A DNA stretch of 64,000 bases from assembly GCA_026128965.1 (NCBI GenBank), contig JAHCIY010000002.1, positions 1,936,468 through 2,000,467 on the forward strand. The letters run 5' to 3'. Source of the stretch: Labilithrix sp. (GTDB lineage Bacteria; Myxococcota_A; Polyangia; Polyangiales; Polyangiaceae). The stretch's first letter is position 1, and each line of letters begins with the position of its first letter. Positions 1 to 15,832 of this stretch are shown here, in pieces. A model generated the notes under the pieces. It did not search any database, was not told the origin of the DNA, and was given only the letters and a program-made list of their open reading frames with translations. Both the position numbers and the translations under genes were made by a program.

Positions 1-1497
1 GGCCGTGATCTGGAGGAGCAAGTTGCGTTCGGCGCCGGGGATGATCGTGTCGAAGACCTGCCCCGTCACGAGCGGGATGAGGGTGGAGAACGATCCGAGG
101 CCGAGGCCCACCACGAGCACGAACGCGACGTCGCGCCAGGCGCGCTTGCCGGAGAAGCGCAGCACGTCGAGCGGTCGGAGCGGGCGGTCCGGCATCGGCG
201 GATAGAACTGGTACGCCTGCGGGTGCACGCGCTCGGCGAGCTCCGCGGTCACCCGACGCGGGCCGCCGGCGCGCGCGTCGAAGAGCTCGTAGCCTCCCTT
301 CGCCGGCAGGAGCGCGATCGGGTTCAGCCGCTCGTCGTTCACCTCGTCGCCGTCGTCGAGCATGAAGCCGAGGAGCGGGCCCACGTCGTCCTCGTGCCAG
401 TCGCCCTCGAGCAGCACCCTGCGCGTGCGCACGCCGGTCATCTGCGCGATCGCGGTCTGGACGGCGCCGAGGCCCGCGCGCGCGGCCGGCCAGCGCGCGT
501 GGATCTCCGCCACGCCGAGGTAGGCCGCGATCTTCTCGGCGGCGTGCTCGAACGGGCGCGCGCTCCCCGACGTCGCGCCGAGGCGCTCGCCGCGCCCCAC
601 CGCCGCGAGCTGGCGGAGCGCGTCGGCGACGAGCTCGCCCTCGGCCTCGCGCGACGCGCCGTCGAGCGCCGCGCGCGCGGCCTCGGCGCCGGCGCGGCTC
701 TTCGCGAGCACCGACACGACGAACGCGTAGAACGCGTCGGCGAAGCTCGTGCTCCGATCGCGCGCGAGGAGCTCCACGCTCGTCGACGTCCGCGCCCCCG
801 TCATCCACGCGCCGCGCGACGAGAGCGGCGACGACAGCGCGCGCGACGACGCGGTCGCGCCCTCGCCGCCGACCACCCACGCGCTCTCGGTCAGCGGCCA
901 CTGCCGCGGCGCGTCTTCGTGCTCGGTCACGCGGACGGCGCCGAAGCGCTCCGGCGTGCTCGCGAGCGTGATCCAGACGAGGCCGCGCGCGGCGCGGAGC
1001 GGGTTCGCCTGCGGTCCGAGGACGAGGCCCGGCTCGACGGCGTCGCACCGCGTCGGCACCGGCGCGGCCGGGAGCATCGAGACGAGGTGCGTGATCCAGG
1101 CGTCGAAGGCGCCCTCGGCGGAGGCGCGCCGCGCCGGATCGGCCAGCGCCTCGACGAAGAGGCGCGACGGGATCCTGAGCACGGAGCCGCCGGGGGGACC
1201 GGTGAGGAGGAGCGCGGCGAGCTCGGTCGCGTTCGCGTCCGGCGCTCGCGCGAAGAGGAGCTGTCCCGGCGCGACGGAGCTCACGTACGCGCGGCGCCCG
1301 ACCGCGCGGCCGTCGCGCCATCCGACGCAGAAGAGCTGGTGGCCCGGCATCGTCGTGACGTAGACGTAGGCGGGATCGTCGAGGAGGAGCGGCTCGTCGC
1401 CCTCGACGCGGAGCTCGTCGCACGCCTCGCCGAAGAGCGCGCGCAGCGACGCGGCGACCTCCGGCTCCTCCTGGCTCGCGCGCGCGGTGTCGATCAT
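1..1497 (-). CDS. NHLM-type bacteriocin system ABC transporter, ATP-binding/permease protein. It has a large N-terminal domain of about 480 aa before the first transmembrane helix. Partial: the C-terminus lies beyond the window start.
   Basis: Its ATG at 1495-1497 overlaps the TGA of the upstream C39-ABC gene (ATGA). I translated the minus frame by hand: it begins MIDTARASQEEPEVAASLRALFGEACDELRVEGDEPLLLDDPAYVYVTTMPGHQLFCVG. Near the window start it reads ...WRDVAFVLVVGLGLGSFSTLIPLVTGQVFDTIIPGAERNLLLQITA, which looks like TM1 of an ABC exporter. There is no stop in this frame inside the window. This fits the second ABC gene of NHLM clusters (TIGR03797-like). Confidence 0.6.
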   Translation of the reverse strand, partial: MIDTARASQEEPEVAASLRALFGEACDELRVEGDEPLLLDDPAYVYVTTMPGHQLFCVGWRDGRAVGRRAYVSSVAPGQLLFARAPDANATELAALLLTGPPGGSVLRIPSRLFVEALADPARRASAEGAFDAWITHLVSMLPAAPVPTRCDAVEPGLVLGPQANPLRAARGLVWITLASTPERFGAVRVTEHEDAPRQWPLTESAWVVGGEGATASSRALSSPLSSRGAWMTGARTSTSVELLARDRSTSFADAFYAFVVSVLAKSRAGAEAARAALDGASREAEGELVADALRQLAAVGRGERLGATSGSARPFEHAAEKIAAYLGVAEIHARWPAARAGLGAVQTAIAQMTGVRTRRVLLEGDWHEDDVGPLLGFMLDDGDEVNDERLNPIALLPAKGGYELFDARAGGPRRVTAELAERVHPQAYQFYPPMPDRPLRPLDVLRFSGKRAWRDVAFVLVVGLGLGSFSTLIPLVTGQVFDTIIPGAERNLLLQITA

Positions 1498-3662
1498 GAG
1501 GTCGTGATCAGCTCGTGGTAGAGGCCGCCCTCGGCCATGAGCGCCTCGTGGGAGCCGCGCTGCACGGCGACGCCGCGATCGAGGACGATGATCTCGTCGG
1601 CGTCGCGGATCGTGGAGAGGCGGTGCGCGATGATGAGGCAGCTGCACCCGCGCCGGCGGAGGTTCGCGTCGACGCGCTGCTCGGTCTCGGGATCGAGCGC
1701 GCTCGTCGCCTCGTCGAGGACGACGATCGCCGGCTGGCGCACGAGCGCGCGCGCGATCTCGAGGCGCTGGCGCTGCCCGCCGCTGAAGTTCACCCCGCCC
1801 TCGAGGATCTTCCCGTCGTAGCCGCCGGGGAGCTTCGCGATGACGTCGTGGATGCACGCGTCCTTCGCCGCCTGCACGACGTCGGCCTCCGGGATCGTGT
1901 CGTCCCAGAGGGTGAGGTTCTCGCGGACGGTACCCTCGAACAACGTCACCTCTTGATCGACGATCGCGACCGACGTCGTGAGCGCGCTCCGCGGGAGCGC
2001 CTCGCGCGGCGTGCCGTCGAAGACGATCTCGCCGCTCCACGGCCGGTAGAGACCGCAGACGAGGCGCGCGACCGTCGACTTGCCGCTCCCGCTCCCGCCG
2101 ACGAGCGCGACGCGCTGTCCCGGCGAGAGGTGCAGCGTCAGCTCGCTCACGAGCGGCGGCGACAGCGGGAGGTAGCCGAAGGTGACGTCCTTCAGATCGA
2201 GCTCGCCGGTGAGGCGGCGCGTGTCCGCCTCCGTCGCGGCCGCGGCGAAGGTCGTGTCCTCCTCGTGCTCGAGGACGTCGTCGAGGCGCTCGAGATCGCC
2301 GCGGAGCTGCTGGAGCGACGCGCCGACGTGGGAGAGGCTCTCGATCGGCCCGAGGAAGCCGGCCATCAGCGTCTGGAAGGCGACGAGCATGCCGAGGCTC
2401 ATGTGGCCGTCCATCACCCGGAGCGCGCCGATCGAGAGGACGAGGAGCGTGCTCGCCTGCCCGACGAGGCCGGTCGTCGTGAGGAGGAGCTGATCGCGCC
2501 GCGCGAGGGCCTGCTGCGACGCGAGCAGCTTCGCGTGGTATCCCGCCCACTGCCCGAAGAACTCGGTCTCGGAGCCGGTCCCCTTGATCGTCTCGATCAT
2601 CTGGAGGCCGCCGGACGCGACGCCGTGGAGCTTGCCGTGGTGCTGCACGACCTGCCGGGAGAGGTCGGTGCGCGCGCGCTCGGCGCCGCGGAGCAGGAGG
2701 ATGTACGCCGCGGCGGTGGCGAAGCCGATGAGCGTCAGCCACGGATCGATGTACAGCATGAAGAGCGCGTAGAACGCGACGAGGACCAGATCGAGCGCGA
2801 TCCCGGAGACGCGCCCCGACAGCGTGTGCGCGACGGCGTCGTTCGCGCGGACGCGATCGGCGAGGTCACCTGCGGAGCGCGCGAGGTAGAAGTCGATCGG
2901 CAAGCGGAGCGCGTGCCAGAGGAACCCGGTCGCCATCTTCACGCCGAGGCGCGCGACGAGCTTGATGAGCGCGGTGCGCTGGAGGTACGTGAGGACGAGG
3001 CGGAGGAGCGCCGCCGCGCTCATCGCGAGGAGGATCGACGAGAGGAGGTCGACCTGCCCGCCGACGAGGACCTCGTCGACGAACACCATGCCGAAGACGG
3101 GGACGACGAGCCCGGGCACGAGGAGGCAGAGACCGGCGAGGGCGATGAAGGCGATCGCTTCGCGCGATCCCGCGAGCCGTCGCGCGAGCATCGCGAACAT
3201 CGAGGGCCGCCGCCCCTTCGGCCGGTACGCCTCCGTCGGCTTGAAGGAGAGGACGACGCCGGTGAAGGCCTGGTTGAACTCCTCGAGCGGGACGCTCGTC
3301 GGCCCCGCCGCGGGATCGTTCAGGTAGGCGCGGCGATCGTCGAAGCCCTCGACGACGAGGAAGTGGTTGAAGTTCCAGTGGACGATGACGGGGAGCGTGA
3401 GGTCGGTGACCTGGTGCGGCTCCTTTCGGTAGCCCTTCGCCTCGAGGTCGTATTTGCGCGCGGCCTTGATGACGTTGCTCGCCTTCGAGCCGTCGCGCGA
3501 GACGCCGCACTCCTCGCGCAGCTTCGAGAGCGGCACGAACGTGCCGTAGTGCTCGAGCACGATCGCGAGGCTCGCCGCGCCGCACTCGGTCGCCTCCATC
3601 TGGAGGCGCGTCGGCGTGCGGATGCGCTTCACCTTCTTCGGCTTCGGCGCCTCGGCGGTCAT
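1494..3662 (-). CDS. Bacteriocin/RiPP export ABC transporter with an N-terminal C39 peptidase domain (NHLM_micro_ABC1-like; peptidase, permease and ATPase in one protein)
   Basis: 722 aa, starting MTAEAPKPKKVKRIRTPTRLQMEATECGAASLAIVLEHYG, which contains the C39 catalytic Cys. It has six TM helices. Walker A is GGSGSGKST, the ABC signature is LSGGQRQRLEIARAL, and Walker B is IVVLDEATSALD. The true start is internal to track ORF 1494..5090, and the residues upstream of it are Arg/Ser junk. Confidence 0.9.
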   Translation of the reverse strand: MTAEAPKPKKVKRIRTPTRLQMEATECGAASLAIVLEHYGTFVPLSKLREECGVSRDGSKASNVIKAARKYDLEAKGYRKEPHQVTDLTLPVIVHWNFNHFLVVEGFDDRRAYLNDPAAGPTSVPLEEFNQAFTGVVLSFKPTEAYRPKGRRPSMFAMLARRLAGSREAIAFIALAGLCLLVPGLVVPVFGMVFVDEVLVGGQVDLLSSILLAMSAAALLRLVLTYLQRTALIKLVARLGVKMATGFLWHALRLPIDFYLARSAGDLADRVRANDAVAHTLSGRVSGIALDLVLVAFYALFMLYIDPWLTLIGFATAAAYILLLRGAERARTDLSRQVVQHHGKLHGVASGGLQMIETIKGTGSETEFFGQWAGYHAKLLASQQALARRDQLLLTTTGLVGQASTLLVLSIGALRVMDGHMSLGMLVAFQTLMAGFLGPIESLSHVGASLQQLRGDLERLDDVLEHEEDTTFAAAATEADTRRLTGELDLKDVTFGYLPLSPPLVSELTLHLSPGQRVALVGGSGSGKSTVARLVCGLYRPWSGEIVFDGTPREALPRSALTTSVAIVDQEVTLFEGTVRENLTLWDDTIPEADVVQAAKDACIHDVIAKLPGGYDGKILEGGVNFSGGQRQRLEIARALVRQPAIVVLDEATSALDPETEQRVDANLRRRGCSCLIIAHRLSTIRDADEIIVLDRGVAVQRGSHEALMAEGGLYHELITTS

Positions 3663-4642
3663 CAGCCCTCGTCGTCGAGCGCCGGGAACACGAGCGCGAT
3701 CGGCCGGCTGGCGCGCGTCACGACCGCCGCCTCGCAGCGCGTGCCGCTCGTCAGCGTCACCTCCGGTCCTTCCCCGTTCGACCAGCGGTACCCGCTCGGC
3801 GTCGCGCCGCGCTCGAGCTCGGCGCGCACCGCGATCGGCGCGCCGCCGGCGGCCTGGATGAACGCGTCGACGAGCTGCTCGTTGCGGAGCGCGCCCATCA
3901 TGCCCGACCGCGTCGACGGGTACTGCTCGACGGACCTCACCTTCCCGAGGAGGACGCCCGCGCGCTCCTTCTTCACGACCGACGGCGCGATCTCGACCTG
4001 CATCCCCGGACGGAGCGACTTGCCGACGTGGGAGTCGAAGTAGAGGAGCGCCTCGAGCTCCTGCCCCTCCGGCGTCGCGCGCTCGATCGTCGCGAGCGGC
4101 GTGCCCGGCGTCACGCGCTCGCCGGGGACGGCCCGCACCTCGAAGACGCGTCCGGCGGCGGCGGCGTAGAGCTTCGCGCCGGAGGTGCGCGTCTTCCTCA
4201 GGCGCTCTAGCTCCTCGCGCAGGCGATCGCGCCGCGCGCCGAGCGACGCCGTCACGGTCCCGGCGTCGACGTCGTGATCGAGCTCGTCGAGGCGGCGCGC
4301 GAGCCCTTCGATCTGTCGATCGAGCGCCGGCTGGGCGACCTGCGCGACGAGCTGTCCCTGCTTCACCTGATCGCCGGCGGAGACCTCGACGCTCACGAGC
4401 TCGCCCTCCGTCTCGGCGAGGACCTCCGAGAGCCCCGCGCCGCCGAGGAGGATCCCGCTCGCGTGGACCTTCGAGCGCACGCGCCCGAGCGAGCCCCACG
4501 CGATCGCGGTGGCGATGACGAGGGCGCAGCCGGCGAGCGCGAGCCACGCCTTCGCGTTGGTCACGCGCATCAGCGTGTGGAGCTGCTCGGGGGAGCTGAG
4601 GCGATCGAGGGCGGCCTTGCGAAAGAGCTTCGAGTCCGCCAT
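3662..4642 (-). CDS. HlyD-family membrane fusion / secretion protein (NHLM bacteriocin system secretion protein-like)
   Basis: 326 aa, starting MADSKLFRKAALDRLSSPEQL, which is the typical N-terminus of bacteriocin-type HlyD proteins. It has one TM helix and a coiled-coil region (LREELERLRK). Its stop overlaps the start of the ABC gene. Confidence 0.85.
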   Translation of the reverse strand: MADSKLFRKAALDRLSSPEQLHTLMRVTNAKAWLALAGCALVIATAIAWGSLGRVRSKVHASGILLGGAGLSEVLAETEGELVSVEVSAGDQVKQGQLVAQVAQPALDRQIEGLARRLDELDHDVDAGTVTASLGARRDRLREELERLRKTRTSGAKLYAAAAGRVFEVRAVPGERVTPGTPLATIERATPEGQELEALLYFDSHVGKSLRPGMQVEIAPSVVKKERAGVLLGKVRSVEQYPSTRSGMMGALRNEQLVDAFIQAAGGAPIAVRAELERGATPSGYRWSNGEGPEVTLTSGTRCEAAVVTRASRPIALVFPALDDEG

Positions 4643-4644
4643 CG

Positions 4645-5154
4645 CTAGCTCCCCCGCGCCTCTTGCACCTGGCGCGCGAGGGCGTTGAAGCGCGCGCCGG
4701 CGCGGTCGACGTTGTCGAGCACGCTGTCGTCGAGCTCGTCGTCGTAGGAGGCGTCGGTCGCGTTGCGGAGCCGGTCGGAGAGGAACGTCGCGACCGACTT
4801 GTAGAAGCGGAGCCCGAAGCCCGGGTTCTGCTCGAGCGCGCCGGCGAGGACACGCCGCGAGATGGCGTACACCACCGCGTCTCCGGCGGCGCTGACGGTG
4901 GCGCTCGGCGGCCGCGCGTCGACGAACGACATCTCGCCCGCGACCTCGCCCACGCCGAGGCGCGCGATCTCGCGCTTCGTCTTCCCCTGCTGCACGACGA
5001 GCTCGCCCTCGAGCACGATGTAGAGGCGCTCGACGGGCACGCCCTCGGTGATGAGCGCAGCGCCCTTCGCGACGCGCTCCTTGCGCCCATGCTTCGCGAG
5101 CCAGTCGACGTCGGCGTCGCTGAGCTGTCCGAAGATGAAGAGGACCTTCCGCAT
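4645..5154 (-). CDS. Cyclic-nucleotide-binding domain protein (bacteriocin-type transport-associated protein, cyc_nuc_ocin-like)
   Basis: 169 aa, starting MRKVLFIFGQLSDADVDWL. It contains the cNMP-binding signature GEVAGEMSFVDARPPSATVSAAGDAVV. Its stop lies 2 nt before the HlyD start. It is the first gene of the cassette. Confidence 0.8.
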   Translation of the reverse strand: MRKVLFIFGQLSDADVDWLAKHGRKERVAKGAALITEGVPVERLYIVLEGELVVQQGKTKREIARLGVGEVAGEMSFVDARPPSATVSAAGDAVVYAISRRVLAGALEQNPGFGLRFYKSVATFLSDRLRNATDASYDDELDDSVLDNVDRAGARFNALARQVQEARGS

Positions 5155-5337
5155 CGCGCGCCTGCCGCCCCTGTAAGGAGGGGCCTACAGTACAGGCTGC
5201 GCGTCGCGGCGTGTTACAAGAACGCGGCTCGCCGCGTCCTTTTTCGGACTGTATCGCGTGCGCGTCGGCGGGCGGGATATCCTGCGTCCGTGCCCGTTCA
5301 GGATCCGGTCAAGCTCTGGTGCCTTGGGGTCGGCGCG

Positions 5338-6858
5338 ATGCTCACGGAGGTGAACGGTCTCCGTCATGACGAGATCGGCGGATGGGCGCCGGGGCCGCGG
5401 GCGCGTGAGTGGTGCGCGAACGTCCTCTCCGACTCGTGGGGCGTCGCGGGGGAGAAGCAGTTCCACGAGATCGTCGACTGGCTCACGCGCACCGGCCACA
5501 GCGCGGAGGCGCGCTCGCAGATCGCGGGGCTCGGGCCGAACCCGCTCGCCGACTACCCGAAGCAGACCATCGTCCGCGCGCACCGGCAGCAGATCGAGCG
5601 GCAAGGCCTCCTCGCCTGGGACTGCGGGCGCCTCGCGTCGATCGTCGGGTGGGGCTTCCACGTCGGGTACCTCGACGAGAACGAGACGTGGCGCATCCTC
5701 CACGGCAACGCGCGGCGCGTGCAGCAGACCTACTCCGCCTGGCGCGAGCTCGGCGACGCCTACGTGATGGGCCGGATGTGGTGGGCGCAGGGCGCGACGA
5801 ACGAGAAGACGCGCAACGCGCACATCAACCTGATCGGGAGCCCGAATTCGCCGTGGAACCGGATGCCGTGGCAGCACCCGCTCGGCGACGCGCCCGCGCC
5901 CGCCGCGCCCGGAGCGTCGAGCAAGGCGACGGTCCGCTTCAAGCGCAGCGTGTGCCCGAGCTGCGGCGGCCACAAAACGCGGCCCTCGCAAACGGCTTAT
6001 GTGTATTGCGACTTCTGCGGGACCCTCGCCGACTACGACTTCCAGAAAGCGTGCGAGGTGCCGGCGAAGCAGCCGGGGCCGGCGTATCAGGAATTGAACG
6101 CGCGGCTCGGGCCGATGATGCAGCAGGCCAAGGCGACCGGCGACGTCAACGGATATCGCAACTTGCAGCGCCAGCTCTTTGCGATGTACATCGAGCAGCT
6201 CCCGAACGCGAACCCGCCGCGCGTGAGCGATCCCGAATACCGTAATCGCTACATCGAATACATGGCCGAGGGCGGCACCGTGACCGCGTTCGACCCGCAG
6301 GCGCTCGCGCTCGAGGCGGAGGTCACGCGCTCGATCGGTGCGCTCCAGTGGGCATTCCCGAAGCCCGGCGTCATGAAAGTAGCGGCCCACAGCTTCGGGC
6401 CGATGGCGAATGCCGTGTTCGCGCAGCAGGACTACATCGCGCGGCTCTACGAGTCGCGCGGCGTCTACGCGATGCACCCCGACCGCGCGCCGGGCGAGCT
6501 CCAGAAGCGGGTAGGGATATCCCTCTTCGTCCAGGGCTGGCTGCCGATGCTCGACGAGGCGTCGACGCAGGCCTTCCTCGAGCGCGCGGGGCTCAAGACC
6601 GAATACGTCGAGGTCGAGCCGGTGAAGGGCGATAAAGCAGATTGTGGGGGGTGCGGCAATCCGCTCGAGGTCCTCCCCGGCGCCAAGCGCTGCATCTGCG
6701 AGAAGTGCGGGCGCGGGCTCGAGGTCGCGGGGGAGCGCATCTCCTGCCGCGGCTGTGGCGCGCCGCTCGCGCCGACGGAGGGCTCGAGCACCGTGACGTG
6801 CCCGCACTGCAAGAACAGCTTCCAGCGCGTCCAGATGATCCAGCCGGGGTTCGGATGA
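5338..6858 (+). CDS. Hypothetical protein with a DUF1266-like N-terminal domain and two C-terminal Cys4 zinc-ribbon pairs
   Basis: The protein reads MLTEVNGLRHDEIGGW...LLAWDCGRLASIVGWGFHVGYLDENETWRILHGNARR, which is the DUF1266 (YbeR/YbeU-like) pattern LLAWDL..R...WGY..GYL. Zinc-ribbon Cys pairs are CPSCGG...CDFCG and CGGCGN...CICEKCG...CRGCG...CPHCK. An alternative in-frame GTG start at 5290 is possible. Confidence 0.6.
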   Translation: MLTEVNGLRHDEIGGWAPGPRAREWCANVLSDSWGVAGEKQFHEIVDWLTRTGHSAEARSQIAGLGPNPLADYPKQTIVRAHRQQIERQGLLAWDCGRLASIVGWGFHVGYLDENETWRILHGNARRVQQTYSAWRELGDAYVMGRMWWAQGATNEKTRNAHINLIGSPNSPWNRMPWQHPLGDAPAPAAPGASSKATVRFKRSVCPSCGGHKTRPSQTAYVYCDFCGTLADYDFQKACEVPAKQPGPAYQELNARLGPMMQQAKATGDVNGYRNLQRQLFAMYIEQLPNANPPRVSDPEYRNRYIEYMAEGGTVTAFDPQALALEAEVTRSIGALQWAFPKPGVMKVAAHSFGPMANAVFAQQDYIARLYESRGVYAMHPDRAPGELQKRVGISLFVQGWLPMLDEASTQAFLERAGLKTEYVEVEPVKGDKADCGGCGNPLEVLPGAKRCICEKCGRGLEVAGERISCRGCGAPLAPTEGSSTVTCPHCKNSFQRVQMIQPGFG

Positions 6859-7502
6859 AGAAGAGCACGAGACTTCGCGCCGCCGAGCCGGCCCCGGACG
6901 TCGACGACGTCGTCCGCCGGCTCGAGCGCCTCACGAAGAAGAAGAACGAGTCGTACCGTTTCGGCACCCGCCTCGCCGAAGAGCAGCTCCGCGCGTTCGA
7001 GGACGCGCACGGCGTCACGCTCCCGGAGGAGTACCGCGCCTTCCTCCAGGCCGCGGGCGAAGGCGCGTCGGGCCCCGACTACGGGCTCGTCACCCTCGCG
7101 CACGCGATCAAGGAGCGCGGCGAGACGATCTACGGCCTCGCCGATCCGTTCCCGATCCCCGCCTCGACCGCCGACCTCCTCGACTTCGCGGTCGGCGGCA
7201 TCCTCCCCGTCGCCTACGGCGGCTGCTCCTACTTCACCGGCATCGTCACGACCGGCCCCGCGCGCGGGACGATGTGGTTCAGCGTCGAGGCGCGCCCGGG
7301 CTGGGTGCCGTGCTGGAAGGGCGCGCTCCTCGGCGCGAACGGCAAGCCGTACGCCGCGCCCGCCGACGCCGATCCGTACCGCGCGACGTACGACGCCGCG
7401 CTCGATCCCGTGAACGAGAAGCTGCGCCTCGGCTTCGCGGGCTGGTACGCGGGGTGGCTCGAAGGCGAGGAGCGCAAGGTCCTCGCCGGGGGCCTGTCGT
7501 GA
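6855..7502 (+). CDS. SMI1/KNR4 (SUKH-1) family protein
   Basis: The protein reads MKKSTRLRAAEPAPDVDDVVRRLERLTKKKNESYRFGTRLAEEQLRAFEDAHGVTLPEEYRAFLQAAGEGASG. This is the SMI1_KNR4 hallmark (L..FE...G..LPEEY..FL). Its ATG overlaps the TGA of the upstream gene (ATGA). Confidence 0.75.
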   Translation: MKKSTRLRAAEPAPDVDDVVRRLERLTKKKNESYRFGTRLAEEQLRAFEDAHGVTLPEEYRAFLQAAGEGASGPDYGLVTLAHAIKERGETIYGLADPFPIPASTADLLDFAVGGILPVAYGGCSYFTGIVTTGPARGTMWFSVEARPGWVPCWKGALLGANGKPYAAPADADPYRATYDAALDPVNEKLRLGFAGWYAGWLEGEERKVLAGGLS

Positions 7503-9586
7503 GCGAGCCGGTCGCGCTGCCGCGCCACCGCGGGAGCGTCACGATGCTCACGTTCACCGCCGACGGCCGCGTCCTCTCGACCAGCCTCGACCGCACCGCG
7601 CAGCTGATGCTCGCCGAGACGCGGAAGCCGCTCGCGGTCTTCGAAGGCCACCTCGCCGCCGTCGCCGACGCGGCCGCGCTCGCGAACGATCGCGTCGTCA
7701 CCGCCTCGTTCGACGGCGGGGTGCGCTTCTTCGACGCGACGACGGGGCGGCTCGCGCTTCTCGCGAAGGGCCACACGAGCCGCGTGATCGCGCTCGCGGT
7801 CGCGCCCGGCCGCGAGCGCGTCGCGAGCGTGAGCGACGACGGATCGGTCCGGATCTGGGACCGCGACGGCAACGCGGGACCGGTCCTGCGCGGCCACGAC
7901 GACGGCGCGATGCGCGCGTACTTCGAGGACGACAAGGCGATCGTCACCGTGTCGCGCGCCGGGATCGTCGCGACGTGGGACGCGACGACGGGCAAGCGCA
8001 TCGAGACGAACCGGATGGCGACGCCGGAGGAGAAGGCGGAGCCGGCGCCGCCGCGCGCGCTCGAGCTCGCGAAGGGGATCGTCGCGGAGGCGCGCGACGA
8101 CGGCACCGTCCGCATCACGGAGGCGAACAGCGGGCGCGCGGTCACGCTCGGCGGCCACGACGACGCCGTCACCGTGCTCGCGATCTCCCCCGACGGCGAT
8201 CTCCTCGCCGCGGGCTCGGCCGACGGCGCGATCCTCGTGTGGCGCTGGCGCGAGGCGTGGGGCCGCGGCGACGGCGCGGCCGCGGCGACGCCGGAGCTGC
8301 CGTGCGTGTGGCGCATCTCCGCCGAGACGAAGACGCCGGACACGCGCTTCGACGGCGGCGAGCTGTGGGTCGGGCGCTCCAACGTCCTCCACGCGTACGA
8401 CGCCGAGACGGGCGAGCGCGGGAGGACGATCGAGGCGCAAGGCGACCTCGTGCACTTCGGCAAGAAGCGGCTCGTCTTCGCGCGCTTCGTCGCCGAGATG
8501 AGCGTCGTCGATCGCAAGAGCGGCAAGGCGGTGCTGACCGCGCCGCTCGAGGGCGAGCACCTCCGCGCGCGCGCCGCGCAACCGCTTGCATGGTGCACAC
8601 GTCGCGCGGGGAAACCGAACGCGCTGCGCATCGTCGATCCCGACAAACCCGACCTCGCGGAGCTCGGCCCGATGAAGGGCTCGCTCGGCGTCTTCGCGTT
8701 CCGCGCCGACGGCAAGCGCGCGGCGGTCGCGGCGGCGGAGGAGCCGCGCGCGTGGCTCTGGAACGTCGAGAGCGGCAAGCTCGTCGCGGAGGCGACGTGG
8801 GAGGGCGCGCCCGCGACGCAGCTCGCGTTCACGCACGACGGCACGCGCGTCGTCGCCGGCACGCGCGACGGCCGCGTCCACGTGCTCGACGCGACGACGG
8901 GGGAGCGCGTCCGCGAGCTCGTCCCGCCGCCGGGCGATCCCCAGCGGCAGGGCCTCGCGCCGATCCACGTGTCGCCGGCGAGCGATCGCGTCGTCGCGTG
9001 GGGCGGCGACGCAAACCACGCGATCCTCTTCGACACCACGACCGGCGCGCCGCTCCTCCGCCTCTTCGGCGAGGAGAAGTCGGGCCTCGTCGCCTCCGGG
9101 GTCGCGTTCTCGCCCGACGGCACGCGCCTCGTCGCCGCGCACGTCGCGCGCCCGAAGCTCGTGTTCTACGACCCGATCGCGGCGGTCCGCGTCGTCTCGC
9201 ACGAGGTCCATCGCTCCGGCGGCGTCGGCGTGCAGCTCCGCTTCTTCGCCGGCGGCAAGCGCATGCTCTCGTGGGCGACGCAGGCGATCGACAAGAGCCT
9301 CCGCGCGTGGGATCCGCGCACGGGCGAGCGGCTCTGGGCGAACCTCGGCCTCGGCGGCGAGGGGATCGACGCGGTCGTGCTCTCACCGAACGAGCGCTTC
9401 CTCGCGGTCACGTCGCGCGGCTGGCCGCTCGTCCGCGTCGTCGACGCCGCGACCGGCAAGACGGTCGCGGACCTCGCCGGCCACCAGGGCTACGTGCCGC
9501 CGCCGAGCTTCGCCGCCGACGAGACGCTCCTCGCGACGAGCTCCTACGAAGGCGACGTGCAGGTCTGGGAGCTGCCTTCGGGTTAA
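7499..9586 (+). CDS. WD40/beta-propeller repeat protein
   Basis: About 695 aa with repeated ...GH.D.V....SPDG..LA.GS.DG.VR.WD... units. Its GTG start overlaps the SMI1 stop (GTGA). The alternative ATG (MLTFTADGR) is 45 nt downstream. Confidence 0.8.
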   Translation: MSEPVALPRHRGSVTMLTFTADGRVLSTSLDRTAQLMLAETRKPLAVFEGHLAAVADAAALANDRVVTASFDGGVRFFDATTGRLALLAKGHTSRVIALAVAPGRERVASVSDDGSVRIWDRDGNAGPVLRGHDDGAMRAYFEDDKAIVTVSRAGIVATWDATTGKRIETNRMATPEEKAEPAPPRALELAKGIVAEARDDGTVRITEANSGRAVTLGGHDDAVTVLAISPDGDLLAAGSADGAILVWRWREAWGRGDGAAAATPELPCVWRISAETKTPDTRFDGGELWVGRSNVLHAYDAETGERGRTIEAQGDLVHFGKKRLVFARFVAEMSVVDRKSGKAVLTAPLEGEHLRARAAQPLAWCTRRAGKPNALRIVDPDKPDLAELGPMKGSLGVFAFRADGKRAAVAAAEEPRAWLWNVESGKLVAEATWEGAPATQLAFTHDGTRVVAGTRDGRVHVLDATTGERVRELVPPPGDPQRQGLAPIHVSPASDRVVAWGGDANHAILFDTTTGAPLLRLFGEEKSGLVASGVAFSPDGTRLVAAHVARPKLVFYDPIAAVRVVSHEVHRSGGVGVQLRFFAGGKRMLSWATQAIDKSLRAWDPRTGERLWANLGLGGEGIDAVVLSPNERFLAVTSRGWPLVRVVDAATGKTVADLAGHQGYVPPPSFAADETLLATSSYEGDVQVWELPSG

Positions 9587-10335
9587 GCCGTCGCGAGGCA
9601 GAAGTGGACGCGCGCGCCGGAGCGGTGCTCGGGGCGCGCGAGGCAGGCGAGGAAGTCCCGCGCGACCGCGTCGAAGCGATCGCCCGCGAAGTCCTTCAGC
9701 GTCACCATGCGATCGAGGCGCGACTGCCAGGCCTCGAGCACGTCCGGCGCGGCGGGGCCGGAGAACGAGAGCTCCGCGTCGCCGAGCGATCGCTCCTCCG
9801 CCGGCGTGAAGCCGATCGCCTCGAGCGTCGGGGCGAGCTTCTTGCCCATGCGGAAGTCGTAGCGCTTCGCGCGGAGGGCGTCGTCCGCGTACGCGTCGAG
9901 GATCGCGCGCGTCTCCTCCGCGAGCGGCGTGTGCGCGAAGAGGTCGTCGACCTCGGTGAGCGCGATGAAGCCGCCCGGCGCGAGGCACGCGATCCAGCTC
10001 TTCAGCGCCGGCTCGAGGTCGACGAAGTACGCGGCGGTGAAGCTGCACCACACGCCGTCGATCGGCTCGCCGAGGTCGGGCAGCGCGCGGAGATCGTGCT
10101 GGCGGAACTCGGCGCGCTCGGGCGGCAGGCCGCGTGCGCGCGCGACCTTCAAGAGGTCCGCGTTCGCGTCGACGCCGATGACGCGCGCGCCGTGGGCGAC
10201 GAGCTCCGCCGCCTGATCGCCGATCGCGCAGCCCACGTCGAGGACCGTCTTCCCCTCGAGGGAGGGGAGGGCCGCGAACGCGGTCGGCCAGTCGCGCCAC
10301 GCCGCCTGGCGGCGATAATCGTTGGCGAGGCTCAT
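9583..10335 (-). CDS. Class I SAM-dependent methyltransferase
   Basis: 250 aa, starting MSLANDYRRQAAWRDWPTAFAALPSLEGKTVLDVGCAIGDQAAELVAHGARVIGVDANADLL. This contains SAM-binding motif I (VLDVGCG-like) and motif II. Its start overlaps the stop of the upstream gene (ATGA). Confidence 0.8.
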   Translation of the reverse strand: MSLANDYRRQAAWRDWPTAFAALPSLEGKTVLDVGCAIGDQAAELVAHGARVIGVDANADLLKVARARGLPPERAEFRQHDLRALPDLGEPIDGVWCSFTAAYFVDLEPALKSWIACLAPGGFIALTEVDDLFAHTPLAEETRAILDAYADDALRAKRYDFRMGKKLAPTLEAIGFTPAEERSLGDAELSFSGPAAPDVLEAWQSRLDRMVTLKDFAGDRFDAVARDFLACLARPEHRSGARVHFCLATA

Positions 10336-11402
10336 GCGGGCGGAGGTACCAGGATCGCGTGGTTCTGCAGGACGAGGAGGAGGTCGTCCGCGATCACGAG
10401 GTCGTTGTCGCGATCGAGCCGCGCGCGCGTCTCGGCCAGCGTCTCCTCCGGCTTGAATTCGCCGAGCACCGCCCAGAGCTCCGGCGTCAGGCTCATCGGA
10501 TCGTACGCGCTGTACGTCGTGACGCCCATCGCGCCGCCGGGGAGCGGACGCGCGACGAGGTTCGGGTTGGGGACGAGACGCTCGGCGAGGCGCGGCGCCG
10601 TGATCGCGTCGAGCTTCGTCGCGACGTCCCGCGCGAGCTCCTCGCTCCGCGGCTCCTCCGCGAGGAGACGATCCATCTCGTCTCGCGTGACGGAGCGCAC
10701 GACGTCGAAGGTGCGGAGGTAGAAGTCCTCCTCGCGTCCCGCCCACTCGCCCCAGCAGGCGGCGTAGTCGATCTCGCTCGGCGCGCGGTCCTCGAGGTCC
10801 TCGAGCGTGAGCTTCATCCGCGGGAAGTCCGGCTCCGCCGCGCCGGGGAACACCGCGCGCGCCGCGTGCCGCGCGAGCACGACCTCCACGTGGGCGGTGA
10901 ATCGTTTGTGCGCGGTCCAGAACGCGTGCCCGGCCGCGCCCGCGTCGTGCTTGCAGAAGAAGGTGGAGCACACCGCCTCGCGATGACGCCAGATCGAGCA
11001 GAGCCCTCCTCCTTCCTCCACGAAGTAGGGACAGAGCAGGACCTTCGAGCGCCCGAAGCTCGTGGTGCGCGCGGCGTCGAGGAGCACGCGGTGCTTCCGC
11101 GGCGGCGCCACCCACTGCGGCGTGATCCCGATCCGCGACGCGATGCGGGCGCGCATCCGGCGCTGCCCCTCCGCCATGTCGGGGTCGGCGAGCACCGCGC
11201 CGGCGAGGAAGTTCGGCAACGTCGGGTGATAGGTGCAGCACTTCAGGTTCGGCTGGAACGCGATCGTGCCCGGCGCCTCCGAGCGCGAGCACATCGCGCA
11301 GTCGCTGCACGTCGCGCGGCGCTCCTCGACGTTCGGTCGGTCGTAGACCGCCGGGAACAGGCGCCGGTGCGCCTCCGGGAGCGTCTCGCGGATCGTCGTC
11401 AT
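10332..11402 (-). CDS. YkgJ-family cysteine-cluster protein (putative Zn/Fe-binding CxxCxxC...CC domain)
   Basis: 356 aa, starting MTTIRETLPEAHRRLF. It contains TCSDCAMCS...KCCTYHP and later LLCPYFVEEGGGLCSIWRHREAVCSTFFC. The second stretch matches the YkgJ/FliB-family motif C.FL..G.CsIY..RP.vC. The C-terminal ~170 aa has no recognisable domain. Confidence 0.65.
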   Translation of the reverse strand: MTTIRETLPEAHRRLFPAVYDRPNVEERRATCSDCAMCSRSEAPGTIAFQPNLKCCTYHPTLPNFLAGAVLADPDMAEGQRRMRARIASRIGITPQWVAPPRKHRVLLDAARTTSFGRSKVLLCPYFVEEGGGLCSIWRHREAVCSTFFCKHDAGAAGHAFWTAHKRFTAHVEVVLARHAARAVFPGAAEPDFPRMKLTLEDLEDRAPSEIDYAACWGEWAGREEDFYLRTFDVVRSVTRDEMDRLLAEEPRSEELARDVATKLDAITAPRLAERLVPNPNLVARPLPGGAMGVTTYSAYDPMSLTPELWAVLGEFKPEETLAETRARLDRDNDLVIADDLLLVLQNHAILVPPPA

Positions 11403-11441
11403 TCGTGGCCACGCGGACGGTACTCGAGTACGACGCTCCGC

Positions 11442-12800
11442 GTGAAGGAGTTCATCGAGGCTTTCAAGGCGCTCCGCCACGCGCCGCTCGCGTTCTGGCT
11501 GTGCGTCTTCGCGTTCACCTTCGACGGCATGGCCTACTTCGGCGTGCTGCCGCTGATGAAGCCGTTCCTCGGGCAGGACCTCCTCATCAAGCCGGAGTAC
11601 GCGAGCATCTGGGTCTCGTGCTTCACCGGCTCGCTCACGATCGCGATGCTCCTCGTCGGCGCGAGCGAACGTGTCCTCGGCATCCGGAAGAGCCTCATCC
11701 TCGCGCTCACGCTCTCGACGCTCGGCCGCGTCGTCTACTCGTCGTCGCCGTTCTTCGGCGGCCTCTTCGGGCTCGCGGTCTCGCTCGTCATCATCGCCAC
11801 CGGCGAGGCGACGGTGCAGGTCATCTGCTACGCGGGCGTGAAGCGCTACACGACCGAGAAGACCAGCTCGATGGGCTACGCGCTCCTCTACGCGGGCCTC
11901 AACTTCGGCGCGATGCTCACCGGGCCGCTCTCGGCGAAGGTCCGCACGACGCAGGACGTCGCCTACAAGGCGGGCACGAGCGCGCTCTCCGGCTTCAACG
12001 CGGTGAACTGGGTCTGCACCGGCATCACCGCCGCGACGCTCCTCGTCTTCTTCCTCTTCATGTCGAAGAAGGTGGAGGCGAACGTCGCGCGCGGGACGGA
12101 CGAGCCGAAGGAGAAGGCGATCGCGGGGGACCGCGGGAGCGCCAAAGAGCCGCCCGCGAAGCCGGCCGGCAAGAGCCCGTTCAAGGACCCGCGCTTCCTC
12201 TTCTTCATCTTCGCGCTCCTCCCCGTGCGCACGCTCTTCGCGCACCAGTGGCTGACGATGCCGGAGTACGTGCTCCGCTCGTACTCGCAAGACGTCGCCG
12301 ATCACATGGAGGTGTTCGTCGACTCGGTGAACCCGCTCGTCATCTTCTTCGGCGTCCCCACCATCGCCGCGCTGACGAAGAAGCGCCACGTCCTCTCGAT
12401 GATGATCGTCGGCTCGCTCGTCAGCGCGTCCGCGACCTTCATCCTCTGCGCCGGCGAGCACGTCACGCTCCTCCTCCTCTACTTCGTCGTCTTCTCGATC
12501 GGCGAGGCGATCTGGTCGTCGCGCTTCCTCGAGTACGCGGCGGAGATCGCGCCGGAGGGCCGCGTCGCGCAGTACATGGGCGTCGCGAACCTGCCCTGGT
12601 TCGTCGCGAAGACGACGACCGGCTTCTACTCCGGCTTCATCCTCGAGAAGTTCGTCCCGAAGGACGGCGCGAAGAGCGGCCCGACGATGTGGCTGATCTA
12701 CGGAGCGATCGCGATGCTCAGCCCGCTCGCGCTCACCACCGCGCGGAAGTGGCTCCGCGCCGGAATGGTGGTCAAGGCGCCCGCGGCGGAGCCGTCGTGA
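11442..12800 (+). CDS. MFS transporter
   Basis: About 452 aa. A GTG start gives MKEFIEAFKALRHAPLAFWLCVFAFTFDGMAYFGVLPLMKPFLGQDL. I count 12 predicted TM helices and a hydrophilic central loop (KEKAIAGDRGSAKEPPAKPAGKSPF). The start is not certain (ATG at MAYFG is possible). Confidence 0.8.
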   Translation: MKEFIEAFKALRHAPLAFWLCVFAFTFDGMAYFGVLPLMKPFLGQDLLIKPEYASIWVSCFTGSLTIAMLLVGASERVLGIRKSLILALTLSTLGRVVYSSSPFFGGLFGLAVSLVIIATGEATVQVICYAGVKRYTTEKTSSMGYALLYAGLNFGAMLTGPLSAKVRTTQDVAYKAGTSALSGFNAVNWVCTGITAATLLVFFLFMSKKVEANVARGTDEPKEKAIAGDRGSAKEPPAKPAGKSPFKDPRFLFFIFALLPVRTLFAHQWLTMPEYVLRSYSQDVADHMEVFVDSVNPLVIFFGVPTIAALTKKRHVLSMMIVGSLVSASATFILCAGEHVTLLLLYFVVFSIGEAIWSSRFLEYAAEIAPEGRVAQYMGVANLPWFVAKTTTGFYSGFILEKFVPKDGAKSGPTMWLIYGAIAMLSPLALTTARKWLRAGMVVKAPAAEPS

Positions 12801-12820
12801 CGGCGTCTCGCCGCTCCCGC

Positions 12821-13705
12821 TCAGCGGCGCTTCGTGCGCTTCGGGCGGGCGGCGACGACGTCGGCGGCGCGTGAAGCGGTCGCGGCGGCGCGGAGCCAGC
12901 GCTCGAGCGTCTCGATGTTCGTCTCGGCGGCGAGCGACGCCTCGATCGCGCGCGCGTCGACGCCGCGGGCTTCGAGCACGGCGAGGATGCTCGTCCGCAG
13001 CGCGTCGATGCGGCCCTCCTCGCGGCCTTCCTCGCGGCCTTCTTCGCGGCCTTCCTCGCGTCCTTCTTCGCGCCCTTCCTCGCGTCCCTCTTCGCGGCCT
13101 TCCTCGCGTCCTTTCGCCTCGACCGCGTCGAGGCTCTCGAATCCCTTGCGCTGCAGCAGGTTCCGGAGCGTGGCTTCGTGCGCGGCGTCGCGGTCGTAGA
13201 GCACCGCGAGCGGGACGGGGTTCTCCAGGATGCCGGGCGCGGTCAGGACGCCGTCGCCCTTCACGACGCGCATCTTGCGGTCCTTCTCGTAGACCTCGAC
13301 GCGGCGCGCGCCCTCGAGGCGGACGACCCAGACGAGCTTCGTCCCCGCGTCGAGCAGCTCGTAGATCTTCGCCTGGAGCTCTTTCTCGTCTTGTCCGACG
13401 TCCGCGTATTCGACGGCCAAGGGCGGCGCCGTCCTTGCCCATCCCTTCTCGTCCGCGATCGGCCCCACCGCGACGTCCGGCGCGCGGAGCATGCCCGGCT
13501 CGGTCGACACGCCGAGGTCGACGCCCGCGGCCTCGACCTTCGGATCCGTCTCCAGCGCCGCGCCGCCCACGAGGTTCCGCGTGCTGCCGCGCTGGCCCGT
13601 CGGCAGGCACTGCACCGGATGCCCGTTCGACAGCTCGTACGGATCGCCGGAGCGGATCTGGCTCGCGACGAAGGGGCCGCGGCCCGAGAGCTTCTGCGTC
13701 CTCAT
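12821..13705 (-). CDS. Uma2-family (DUF820) putative restriction-endonuclease-like protein with an internal (GREE)8 repeat
   Basis: The protein reads MRTQKLSGRGPFVASQIRSGDPYELSNGHPVQCLPTGQ...PDVAVGPIADEKGW...VEYADVGQDEKELQAKIYELLDAGTKLVWVV, which are the Uma2 core motifs. It is followed by GREEGREEGREEGREEGREEGREEGREEGREEGR. The longer track ORF, which runs to 13777, has a junk N-terminus. Confidence 0.7.
   Translation of the reverse strand: MRTQKLSGRGPFVASQIRSGDPYELSNGHPVQCLPTGQRGSTRNLVGGAALETDPKVEAAGVDLGVSTEPGMLRAPDVAVGPIADEKGWARTAPPLAVEYADVGQDEKELQAKIYELLDAGTKLVWVVRLEGARRVEVYEKDRKMRVVKGDGVLTAPGILENPVPLAVLYDRDAAHEATLRNLLQRKGFESLDAVEAKGREEGREEGREEGREEGREEGREEGREEGREEGRIDALRTSILAVLEARGVDARAIEASLAAETNIETLERWLRAAATASRAADVVAARPKRTKRR
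13010..13115. repeat. Imperfect 12-bp tandem repeat (~8.5 copies, ggccttc[ct]tcgcg units). It encodes (GREE)n inside the Uma2 gene.
   Basis: I saw the repeated units cctcgcggccttcttcgcggccttcctcgcgtccttcttcgcgccc... directly in the sequence. Confidence 0.8.
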
Positions 13706-13836
13706 CCTACGAACCGTAGCAGACCCCGCGCCGGCCGGCCGGCGCCGCCTCCGGCCCGGCGGGCGACGGATCCCCATATTTCCCTGCGAATCGGCGGTAT
13801 CGACGTGCGCAACGCGTTCTGAGATACTCGCGAGCC

Positions 13837-14343
13837 ATGAGCACGTCCGTCGTCATCGAGACAGACCTTGGGGATATCGAAGTCGAGCTGGCGGATGACA
13901 AGGCGCCGAAGTCCGTCGCCAACTTCCTCCAGTACGTCGAGTCCGGCCACTACGAGGGCACCATCTTCCACCGCGTCATCCCGGGCTTCATGGCCCAGGG
14001 CGGCGGTTACGACGAGAAGCTCGAGAAGAAGCCGGTGAAGGATCCGGTGGAGAACGAGGCCGACAACGGTCTCAAGAACGAGCGCGGCACCGTCGCGATG
14101 GCGCGGACGAGCGCGCCGAACTCGGCGACGGCGCAGTTCTTCATCAACGTGAAGGACAACGGCTTCCTCGATCACACCGGCAAGAACGACACCGGCTGGG
14201 GCTACGCCGTCTTCGGCAAGGTCACCTCCGGCATGGACGTCGTCGACAAGATCGTCGGCGTGAAGACGGGCGCGAAGGGCCCCTTCACGAAGGACGCGCC
14301 GGAAGAGAACATCAAGATCAAGAGCGTGAAGAAGAAGGAGTGA
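13837..14343 (+). CDS. ppiB: Peptidyl-prolyl cis-trans isomerase, cyclophilin type
   Basis: 168 aa: ...HYEGTIFHRVIPGFMAQGGG...NERGTVAMARTSAPNSATAQFFINV... These are the canonical cyclophilin motifs. Confidence 0.9.
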   Translation: MSTSVVIETDLGDIEVELADDKAPKSVANFLQYVESGHYEGTIFHRVIPGFMAQGGGYDEKLEKKPVKDPVENEADNGLKNERGTVAMARTSAPNSATAQFFINVKDNGFLDHTGKNDTGWGYAVFGKVTSGMDVVDKIVGVKTGAKGPFTKDAPEENIKIKSVKKKE

Positions 14344-14900
14344 AGCCTCCGGCGCGGACGGCACGGCGGATCGCGCTCGTCCTCTCCGCCCTCGCGGTGC
14401 TCGTCTCCGTCGGTTGCGGGGTCGCGGCGCGGCACGCGTTCGCGATGCGCGGCGTGGTCGAGTCGGACCCCGAGGCGCTCGTGGGGCCTCTCCTCTGGTT
14501 CCTCGTCCTGCTCCTCGTCGCGCTCCTCCTCCGGATGGGCGCGGCGGTGTGCGAGCTCCTGTGGCTCGAGCGCACGTGGTCGAACCTGCCGCTCGAGCTG
14601 CGGAAGGTCGGGCCGATCGAGAAGGTCGAGCCGATCGTGCTCATCGGCGTGAGCCTCGTCCCCGGCGTCGCGTGGATCTGGAAGCTCGGCGTCATCGACG
14701 CGGTCGCGCGCGGCTTCGAGGCGATCCGCGCGCGCGTCCCGTTCACCGCGCCGGTCCCGCGCCGCCTCGGCGTGGCGGCCGTCGTCGTCGGCTGGGTGCC
14801 CGGTCTGAACGTGTATGTTGCACCCTTCTTGTGGGAGGTCTTCGCGACGCGGATCGATCGCTGCGTCAGTGAGATCGAAGCGCGACGCGCTCCGGCGTGA
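14340..14900 (+). CDS. Hypothetical membrane protein
   Basis: 186 aa. Its GTG start overlaps the ppiB stop (GTGA). It has several hydrophobic helices with Trp/Lys caps (LLWFLVLLLVALLL, IVLIGVSLVPGVAWIWKLGVI). Its composition is unlike the antisense junk. Confidence 0.5.
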   Translation: MKPPARTARRIALVLSALAVLVSVGCGVAARHAFAMRGVVESDPEALVGPLLWFLVLLLVALLLRMGAAVCELLWLERTWSNLPLELRKVGPIEKVEPIVLIGVSLVPGVAWIWKLGVIDAVARGFEAIRARVPFTAPVPRRLGVAAVVVGWVPGLNVYVAPFLWEVFATRIDRCVSEIEARRAPA

Positions 14901-15717
14901 ACGCGGGCTCGTCGAGCGCGAGCTCCTCGTCGTCGATCGCGACGCGGTAGCGCGCGGTGGGCTCCTCGGCGCCGACGCGCATCGCCGGCGCCGGCTTCTC
15001 CTGTCCGAAGCCCTTCCGCGCGAGGAGGATCGGGAGGAGGTGGAGCGAGAGCATCGGGAGCGCGATGAACGGGAGGAGGACGTTCCAGCCCATCGGCGCG
15101 AAGACCGCGGCGACGAGGAGGACGATGCCCGTCGCGGCGCCGAGGAAGATCCCCCACGACCGCATGCGGACGACGCCGATCGCGGACGCGAGGAGGGCGA
15201 GCGTGAGCCCGGCGAACGGGACGCTGAGCGCGAGATCGAGCTTGCTCGAGGCCCCCGCGAGCTCGAGCGCGATGCCGCCGGTGAGGAACGCGGTGGCCGC
15301 GGTCGCGGTGGAGCCGGCGAGGAGGAGCCGGCGATAGGCCTTGGGCGCGAAGCTCGCGAGCGCCTCCTTCGTGCGGAGCATCGGGGCCGAGAGCGCGAGG
15401 GCGGTCGCGGTCGTCGCCGTGAGCGCGGTCTCGGTGAAATCGGGGATGTGGTGGCGGATGAAGATCTGCGCGAGGAACACGATCGCCATCGGGAAGAGCG
15501 TGACCCACGCCGCGCCGCGGGACAGCACCTGCGCGACGAGCGATCGCCGCGTGATGCCGAGCGCGCTCACGCCGAGGACCCCGGCGAAGGCGAGCGGGAG
15601 CCACTCGACGTGCCAGTGCCGGAGCGACTCCCACGCGACGACGCCGGCCGCGCCGAGCATGGAGGCCGCAGCGACGGCCTTCCGCTTCACCGAGATCCCA
15701 TCGCCTGCGGTCCGCAC
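14866..15717 (-). CDS. Hypothetical polytopic membrane protein
   Basis: 283 aa and rich in Phe/Ile/Met/Trp/His (FPMAIVFLAQIFIRHHIPDF, FLGAATGIVLLVAAVFAPMGWNVLLPFIALPMLSLHLLPILLARKGF). Its 3' end overlaps the convergent membrane-protein gene by about 35 nt. Confidence 0.5.
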   Translation of the reverse strand: MRTAGDGISVKRKAVAAASMLGAAGVVAWESLRHWHVEWLPLAFAGVLGVSALGITRRSLVAQVLSRGAAWVTLFPMAIVFLAQIFIRHHIPDFTETALTATTATALALSAPMLRTKEALASFAPKAYRRLLLAGSTATAATAFLTGGIALELAGASSKLDLALSVPFAGLTLALLASAIGVVRMRSWGIFLGAATGIVLLVAAVFAPMGWNVLLPFIALPMLSLHLLPILLARKGFGQEKPAPAMRVGAEEPTARYRVAIDDEELALDEPAFTPERVALRSH

Positions 15718-15832
15718 CTCTGCTCCGACGAACGAGCGCGCGCGGATGTTCCAGATCCCGAGAAATGAAATCGATTTCGGTCACGCGCGCGCGTTGAACA
15801 CCATCGCGAAAAGGAGTACATGCGCCTACACG

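Follow-up and report, generated by a model that had tools for sequence, protein, structure and literature searches.

Within a 64,000-nucleotide (nt) stretch of a Labilithrix sp. genome (contig JAHCIY010000002.1, positions 1,936,468 to 2,000,467 of the forward strand; hereafter the window), three overlapping genes on the + strand encode, in order, a DUF1266 protein extended by a zinc-ribbon/helical module (gene 1), a SUKH-1 protein of the SMI1/KNR4 type (gene 2) and a WD40 repeat protein (gene 3). The trio brings known domain families together with one unmodelled, widespread zinc-ribbon/helical module in a combination not described before. Our leading explanation, held tentatively, is that it forms a composite operon of cytoplasmic protein-binding modules with a real functional link among them, and not a toxin–immunity cassette. 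We prefer such a link over accidental adjacency, itself possible if somewhat unlikely, mainly because DUF1266 proteins recur together with repeat-type binding platforms.

Under this explanation, a unit consisting of a SUKH-1 gene and a gene for a WD40 protein of ~630–700 amino acids (aa) would have been inserted directly behind gene 1, probably in a single event basal to one subclade, and would since have been kept in most members of that subclade and lost in some. Because the SUKH and WD40 genes form a constant pair, we propose that the SUKH binding cleft may hold the WD40 protein or bridge something to it, while the product of gene 1, presumably translated from the same mRNA, would be a partner or client of the SUKH–WD40 platform. 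Here we infer a physical interaction among the three proteins, as well as any cellular role they may have.

Three coupled genes and their domains

A frame plot of third-position GC content (GC3), drawn for a window of ~72% G+C, backs exactly three + strand genes, at 5290–6858, 6855–7502 and 7499–9586, whose products of 522, 215 and 695 aa are called identically in the public annotation of a Labilithrix sp. metagenome-assembled genome (MAG; GCA_019637155.1, JAHBWE010000023.1). Gene 1 opens with GTG, and its orthologues begin MPVQDP. The ATG of gene 2 overlaps the gene 1 stop by 4 nt (ggATGAag, 6855–6858), and the GTG of gene 3 overlaps the gene 2 stop by the same length (tcGTGAgc, 7499–7502). 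The frame plot and the junction sequences together bear out a sequence-only reading that preceded this analysis, which had described three genes of one orientation joined by 4-nt ATGA and GTGA overlaps. A scan of 5290–9586 found no terminator-like site on the + strand, and the three genes are presumably co-transcribed. Hydropathy profiles contain neither hydrophobic segments nor signal-like N-termini in any of the three products, and all three are therefore predicted to be cytoplasmic.

Gene 1 matches DUF1266 (PF06889) at aa 46–194 (nucleotides 5425–5871, + strand) with 108.4 bits against a cutoff of 27 (E 6e-31), spanning profile positions 2–175 of 175. Aligned to 149 diverse DUF1266 representatives, it carries the residues of the invariant and near-invariant columns, including the A-W-D-x-x-R motif: D111, the family-wide invariant Asp, with W110, R114, Q145, W151, W165 and S187-P188-W189. 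In an AlphaFold2 (AF2) model with a predicted local distance difference test score (pLDDT) of 86, two well-folded parts are separated by a disordered linker (aa 204–216), the first of them being the helical DUF1266 domain at about aa 5–200. The second part, from the model and an alignment of 37 full-length homologues, consists from N to C terminus of a zinc ribbon, an all-helical core of ~190 aa and two further zinc ribbons. Ribbon 1 (5953–6018, + strand) is formed by C222/C225 and C240/C243, the core spans aa ~248–445 (6031–6624, + strand), and ribbons 2 and 3 (6643–6810, + strand) are formed by C452/C455 with C470/C473 and C486/C489 with C504/C507. The sequence-only reading had thus been right to call a DUF1266 fusion but had undercounted its C-terminal part, for which it gave four CxxC pairs in two ribbons; there are six conserved pairs in three.

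Conservation of this C-terminal module extends across several phyla. Among 72 homologues the ribbon 1 cysteines are 94–97% conserved, and they are invariant in the alignment of full-length homologues; the core retains D248, D250, Y266, D285, R311, D314, R318, D335, P397, D398, Q415 and W417. No Pfam family covers the core, and the only matches of ribbons 2 and 3 in a hidden Markov model (HMM) search are sub-threshold ones to Zn_ribbon_6 and LSD1. The HMM search found no known toxin domain in gene 1, in keeping with the earlier remark that its product lacks a recognizable one, nor did we find a signal peptide, a transmembrane segment (maximum 19-residue hydropathy 0.98) or a trafficking domain. 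Foldseek comparison of the model with the Protein Data Bank (PDB) returned no solved toxin or enzyme fold (best E 0.25), and the sequence has no meaningful match in the PDB or in PADLOC. An anti-phage defence system was considered and dropped, the PADLOC-DB models having yielded nothing meaningful: a spurious zinc-ribbon match of gene 1 to Cas12f (E 0.004), none for gene 2 and a generic repeat match for gene 3.

The conserved Asp/Arg set of the helical core makes an activity of the module possible, as judged from conservation. One version of this idea, to which we give little probability, is that the module is a new enzymatic or nucleic-acid-binding effector domain which, in Labilithrix, would have become part of a three-component regulatory or conflict system, restrained by the SUKH protein and released when the WD40 protein senses a protein signal.

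Gene 2 (6855–7502, + strand) exceeds the SMI1_KNR4 (PF09346) cutoff of 25.4 with 31.7 bits; its orthologues carry the same precomputed Pfam match, and its product is 100% identical to the NCBI entry 'SMI1/KNR4 family protein [Labilithrix sp.]'. Its AF2 model (pLDDT 81, predicted template modelling score 0.82) retrieves SUKH-1 structures, namely Knr4, YobK, BF1740 and FBXO3, as the top 11 PDB matches in Foldseek, the first nine at probabilities of 0.97–1.00, although the best E value, 6e-3, is modest. The SUKH call of the earlier reading is upheld on both counts. Gene 2 shares its Pfam assignment and its best structural matches with SUKH-1 proteins such as Bacillus subtilis YobK (2PRV), yeast Knr4/Smi1 and human FBXO3, whereas it differs from the typical bacterial SUKH-1 protein in having a WD40 protein, and not a secreted toxin, as constant partner, and in bearing extra helices at both ends (aa 16–28 and 174–209 in the model). 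Its family is very small, with ten close clusters and a next best match no better than E 2e-6. The SUKH fold at large has been described (PMC3113570) as a versatile scaffold that binds partners and has a cleft.

Gene 3 (7499–9586, + strand) is a WD40 protein (PF00400, 125 bits against a cutoff of 27, E 6e-37) that also matches many beta-propeller families, among them Beta-prop_WDR3_1st (166.8 bits, cutoff 154), and that finds 323 WD40 chains in the PDB at E ≤ 1e-10. The beta-propeller of ~700 aa anticipated downstream was therefore correctly recognized; its 695 aa suffice in length for two propellers, and it carries no domain besides WD40 repeats, which DNA repeats inside the gene merely mirror. 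Its best solved relative by sequence, the multi-blade WD40 repeat protein of Nostoc punctiforme (2YMU, E 2e-59), likewise consists of canonical WD40 repeats with no other domain. Unlike proteins of that type, gene 3 is part of a small set of orthologues whose genes invariably follow a gene of one specific SUKH family, and it lacks an effector, kinase or NTPase domain. Elsewhere in the window, 43231–43359 (− strand) encodes a segment 49% identical to gene 3 aa 436–478, indicating another WD40-repeat gene.

Conservation of the trio and of the SUKH–WD40 pair

The trio, with the same 4-nt overlaps, occurs in five contig lineages, all within one subclade of gene 1. By identity of gene 1 to that of the window, the closest related loci, from metagenomes, are L092 (83%), where all three genes are contiguous; L091 (81%), where gene 1 and the SUKH gene are followed by the contig end; L083 (76%), where a 282-aa WD40 gene lies upstream of the trio; and L084/L085 (70%), where a 298-aa WD40 gene lies downstream of it. 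L092 was the sole close locus added by a metagenome scan with a SUKH profile. Sequence comparison confirmed orthology of all three genes across these loci. The junction overlaps are kept down to ~70% identity in gene 1, 56% in gene 2 and 43–48% in gene 3, gene 1 being the slowest-evolving of the three.

Wherever the locus is complete, the WD40 orthologue (632–699 aa) directly follows the SUKH gene. As far as gene order tells, the tightly linked unit is SUKH plus WD40, the link between these two genes being closer than that between the SUKH gene and gene 1.

A second, small WD40 family of 282–325 aa, with members 35–58% identical, moves around gene 1: it lies upstream of gene 1 in L083 (7110–7958), just behind gene 1, overlapping it by 4 nt, in Labilithrix L001 (11590–12567), and after the large WD40 gene in L084 (10291–11184). 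The window contains no gene of this family.

A number of observations weigh against the leading explanation. In Labilithrix L001 (gene 1 identity 69%), gene 1 is accompanied by the small WD40 gene alone, which follows it directly, and there is no SUKH gene. Gene 1 stands without either a SUKH or a WD40 gene in the P0005 contig (71%), in a sister clade comprising L086/L087 (61%), L116 (62%) and the P0012 contig (57%), and in every distant homologue; for L001, L086/L087, P0005, L116 and P0012, the absence of SMI1_KNR4 covers flanks of up to 5–10 kilobases (kb) or to the contig end. Conversely, the P0067 contig and L088 have a SUKH gene with a 4-nt overlap to a 678–699-aa WD40 orthologue and no gene 1 nearby. 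The contigs P0005, P0065 and P0067 stem from a single sample and could represent one genome that has gene 1 and the pair at separate places. In a neighbour-joining tree of gene 1 the sequences from trio loci group with P0004 and P0005 in one clade, so that the five trio contigs count as about one event and not as five; on this tree the trio probably arose once, and one insertion followed by two losses would be the simplest history. The placement of the SUKH–WD40 pair behind gene 1 could hence be an accident of insertion. Moreover, the Asp/Arg set of the core, together with the invariant Asp of DUF1266, could form an undetected catalytic site, in which case the description of the modules as non-catalytic would be wrong.

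Taken at face value, these distributions would suit functionally unrelated neighbours: the SUKH–WD40 pair would have landed behind gene 1 once, the 4-nt overlaps would persist by inertia, and gene 1 and the pair would serve different processes. The single origin, the pair without gene 1 and gene 1 without the pair all speak for this account, as does the want of a recurrent same-strand neighbour for the C-terminal module, since a Pfam census of 43 close same-strand neighbours (putative operon partners) found each listed family, that is, each of the 25 most frequent of 58, only once. We nevertheless hold it to be the less likely of the two, given that the start/stop overlaps survive the sequence divergence noted above, that the second WD40 family stays by gene 1 through three rearrangements, and that DUF1266 has a general affinity for repeat scaffolds.

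The earlier reading had put gene-order conservation forward as a check on the association. Conservation holds within one narrow, Labilithrix-like subclade, and it extends nowhere else among ~80 homologous loci.

Toxin–immunity systems compared

The locus had initially been read as a possible toxin/immunity-like module, in which gene 1 would be a cryptic toxin and the SUKH protein its immunity partner. Bacterial SUKH proteins are indeed predicted immunity proteins whose genes lie directly downstream of toxins, typically after a multidomain secreted nuclease or deaminase toxin and often in paralogue arrays (PMC3113570). As in polymorphic toxin/immunity systems (Zhang et al. 2011, 2012), the SUKH gene here directly follows and overlaps a larger multidomain gene to which it is translationally coupled, and the helical core of gene 1 offers conserved acidic and basic residues in an unmatched fold.

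The resemblance stops there. Gene 1 has none of the N-terminal trafficking or repeat domains, the signal peptide or the known toxin domain of such systems, and the locus has neither C-terminal variability nor a cassette array. In L003–L008 the C terminus is more conserved (51–57%) than the N-terminal part (38–46%), the opposite of polymorphic toxins, and the slowest-evolving gene of the three is the supposed toxin. That supposed toxin also occurs without its 'immunity' gene, many genomes having gene 1 with no SUKH gene within 8–10 kb. A single SUKH gene takes the place of a tandem paralogue array, and it is followed by a WD40 gene even where gene 1 is missing, although beta-propellers are not known among immunity proteins (PMC3482391). 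Finally, the locus sits in a syntenic chromosomal backbone and not in a mobile cassette. Gene distribution largely refutes the toxin–immunity reading, to the extent that comparative data can, and we regard it as decidedly improbable; the slow evolution of gene 1, its occurrence without SUKH and the tie between SUKH and WD40 all run counter to the original suggestion.

DUF1266 proteins and repeat-type binding platforms

The preference for a functional link draws most on the DUF1266 family itself. An exhaustive HMMER search yielded 1,898 DUF1266 clusters at 50% identity, and among the 99 longer proteins the commonest fused domains are TPR (10), Sel1 (6) and ankyrin (4), with no enzyme or toxin family, and no DnaJ, among the commonest fusion partners listed. 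In Escherichia coli, the DUF1266 genes ybeR and ybeU adjoin the Sel1 genes ybeQ and ybeT. In a Nannocystineae MAG, a PQQ_2 beta-propeller gene lies 3 nt upstream of a homologue that consists of the C-terminal module only. Together with the two WD40 families found around gene 1, the repeat-scaffold fusions, the Sel1 neighbours and this beta-propeller suggest a working partnership between DUF1266 proteins and repeat-type binding platforms. Literature searches on DUF1266, YbeU and YbeR found no functional study, and a search on SUKH with WD40 found no relevant one.

The N-terminal domain of gene 1 is a true distant homologue of YbeR and YbeU (22–24% identity, E 1e-5 to 3e-4). They share with it a DUF1266 domain with the invariant Asp and Trp-rich motifs, a 4-nt overlap to the next gene and an association with repeat scaffolds. 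They differ in being single-domain proteins of 235 aa, coupled to J-domain co-chaperones and encoded close to an Hsp70 gene, whereas gene 1 is fused to the module with its three zinc ribbons and is coupled to SUKH and WD40 genes. The E. coli pairs ybeR–djlB and ybeU–djlC, each with a 4-nt overlap, lie next to hscC in the region ybeQ-ybeR-djlB-ybeT-ybeU-djlC-hscC, which bears out the earlier reading's remark on DnaJ/Hsp70-like neighbours of enterobacterial DUF1266 genes.

From that neighbourhood and from the homology to YbeR/YbeU one might derive a chaperone-linked adaptor, in which DUF1266 would recruit or present clients to an Hsp70 system encoded elsewhere while the WD40 and SUKH proteins bind clients. 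This we consider unlikely, and the chaperone-like module once proposed for the locus has nothing in its surroundings to sustain it: searches with E. coli DjlB, DjlC and HscC (tblastn) detected no Hsp70 or J-domain gene in the window, the Pfam families listed for the genes called in the flanks of the relatives examined include neither Hsp70 nor DnaJ, DnaJ is missing from the commonest DUF1266 fusions, and the literature searched reports no function for either YbeR or YbeU.

Distribution of gene 1 and its C-terminal module

The full-length architecture of gene 1 occurs in Myxococcota MAGs only. The C-terminal module alone forms proteins of 300–430 aa in at least six phyla, with occurrences in Arenimonas, Armatimonadota, Actinomycetota, Chloroflexota, Dormiibacterota, spirochaetes and Myxococcota. 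These stand-alone proteins are 34–47% identical to gene 1 aa ~205–520 and conserve all 12 cysteines and the Asp/Arg/Trp set; they are annotated only as hypothetical, 'LSD1 zinc finger' or 'RPC12/RpoP'. Unlike gene 1, they have short low-complexity N termini, no DUF1266 domain by HMM test and no SUKH or WD40 neighbours. In Armatimonadota and Actinomycetota homologues (L018, L020, L036, L053, L054 and L060) the N terminus reads MG[LI]F[KDN][KR]K and then runs into a low-complexity stretch rich in Q and A. The comparison indicates that gene 1 is a myxobacterial fusion of DUF1266 to a much more widespread stand-alone module. A genome scan with single-sequence patterns and a word-index search with the DUF1266 domain alone both returned no matches.

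For a survey of neighbours, genes were called in 80 genome loci and the neighbouring genes clustered. No homologue of gene 2 or gene 3 appears in these loci, nor does any conserved neighbour of the stand-alone module other than by within-genus synteny in Arenimonas. In ten lineages the genes upstream of the module are unrelated (peptidase M16, amidohydrolase, Fe-ADH, beta-lactamase, MFS, radical SAM and others), and distant full-length homologues of gene 1 sit among housekeeping genes, for example those for F420 oxidoreductase, RluA and sucCD. In the Arenimonas loci (L013, L015, L016, L019, L025, L026, L028 and L035), a Band_7_1 (SPFH)+HTH_17 gene and a gene for a 367-aa zinc-ribbon protein come after the module gene, an arrangement that resembles the pspA-ydjGHI membrane-stress operon of B. 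subtilis. A relationship of the module to YdjG, suspected from this SPFH neighbour, was set aside: YdjG is described as membrane-integral (PMC8581546), and gene 1 has no hydrophobic segment.

Genomic surroundings

Gene 1 diverges from a bacteriocin-type exporter on the − strand, as had been noted from the sequence and as model matches now support: a C39-peptidase ABC exporter (1494–3662; TIGR03796, 1028 bits), an NHLP-type HlyD protein (3662–4642; TIGR03794, 273 bits) and a cyclic nucleotide monophosphate (cNMP)-binding protein (4645–5154; 'bacteriocin-type transport-associated' model, 130 bits, below its cutoff of 161). In the public record a second ABC protein, of 1004 aa, and an S41 peptidase lie further upstream of the exporter. 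This setting invites the view that the trio supplies accessory parts of the exporter, for example in regulation or self-protection, and the divergent genes are a mere 135 nt away. No relative has the NHLP exporter beside gene 1, where PolX or other genes stand upstream instead, and we rate the view as very improbable; in this genome the upstream side appears, by comparison with relatives, to have been replaced by the exporter.

The 135 nt between the cNMP-binding gene and gene 1 (5155–5289) form a divergent intergenic region that, from its sequence and a scan, we presume to hold the promoter region. The scan found no sigma-70-like promoter there, a test that says little for a myxobacterium. 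Within the region, a GC hairpin (ACGCGG-CTCG-CCGCGT) followed by a T-run at 5222–5237 (+ strand) could be an operator or attenuator-like element. No Rfam RNA family was found in window positions 1–16000.

Relatives share a syntenic backbone of PolX, gene 1, a ~360-aa gene on the opposite strand, an MFS gene and a cyclophilin gene, against which the SUKH–WD40 pair and a methyltransferase gene stand out as inserts. We take gene 1 to be a vertically inherited chromosomal gene of Labilithrix-like Polyangia. PolX, a family X DNA polymerase with a PHP domain, lies on the same strand 2–60 nt upstream of gene 1 in L116 (3165–4988), P0012 and P0005, and within a few kb of it in L001, L083, L084 and L086. 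A functional link to PolX was set aside, the gene being absent from the window and from the distant homologues; the proximity is probably local synteny.

Downstream of gene 3, the window continues with the convergent methyltransferase gene, a gene for a 356-aa protein without a Pfam match, an MFS transporter gene, a Uma2 gene and a cyclophilin gene. The methyltransferase gene (9583–10335, − strand) and gene 3 overlap in their stops at TTAA (9583–9586), which leaves no intergenic space for a terminator. The Uma2-family (putative restriction endonuclease-like) gene, at 12821–13777 (− strand) between the MFS and cyclophilin genes, marks another insertion or deletion in the syntenic backbone, its position being taken in relatives by Kelch, Ser/Thr kinase or TPR/PEGA genes, or left empty.

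Meaning for the SUKH and DUF1266 families

The finding is a tidy, narrow, lineage-specific operon that contradicts nothing in current knowledge, and the trio looks like a lineage-specific scaffold or adaptor set. The C-terminal zinc-ribbon/helical module, widespread and with a core that has no Pfam model or structural relative, would be reasonable to choose for structural work. Should the three products prove to form a complex, gene 2 would encode a bacterial SUKH-1 protein whose defined partner is not a toxin but a WD40 beta-propeller, which would caution against labelling SUKH genes automatically as immunity genes. Such a complex would also provide the first functional handle on DUF1266, a family of ~1,900 clusters at 50% identity that includes YbeR and YbeU of E. 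coli.

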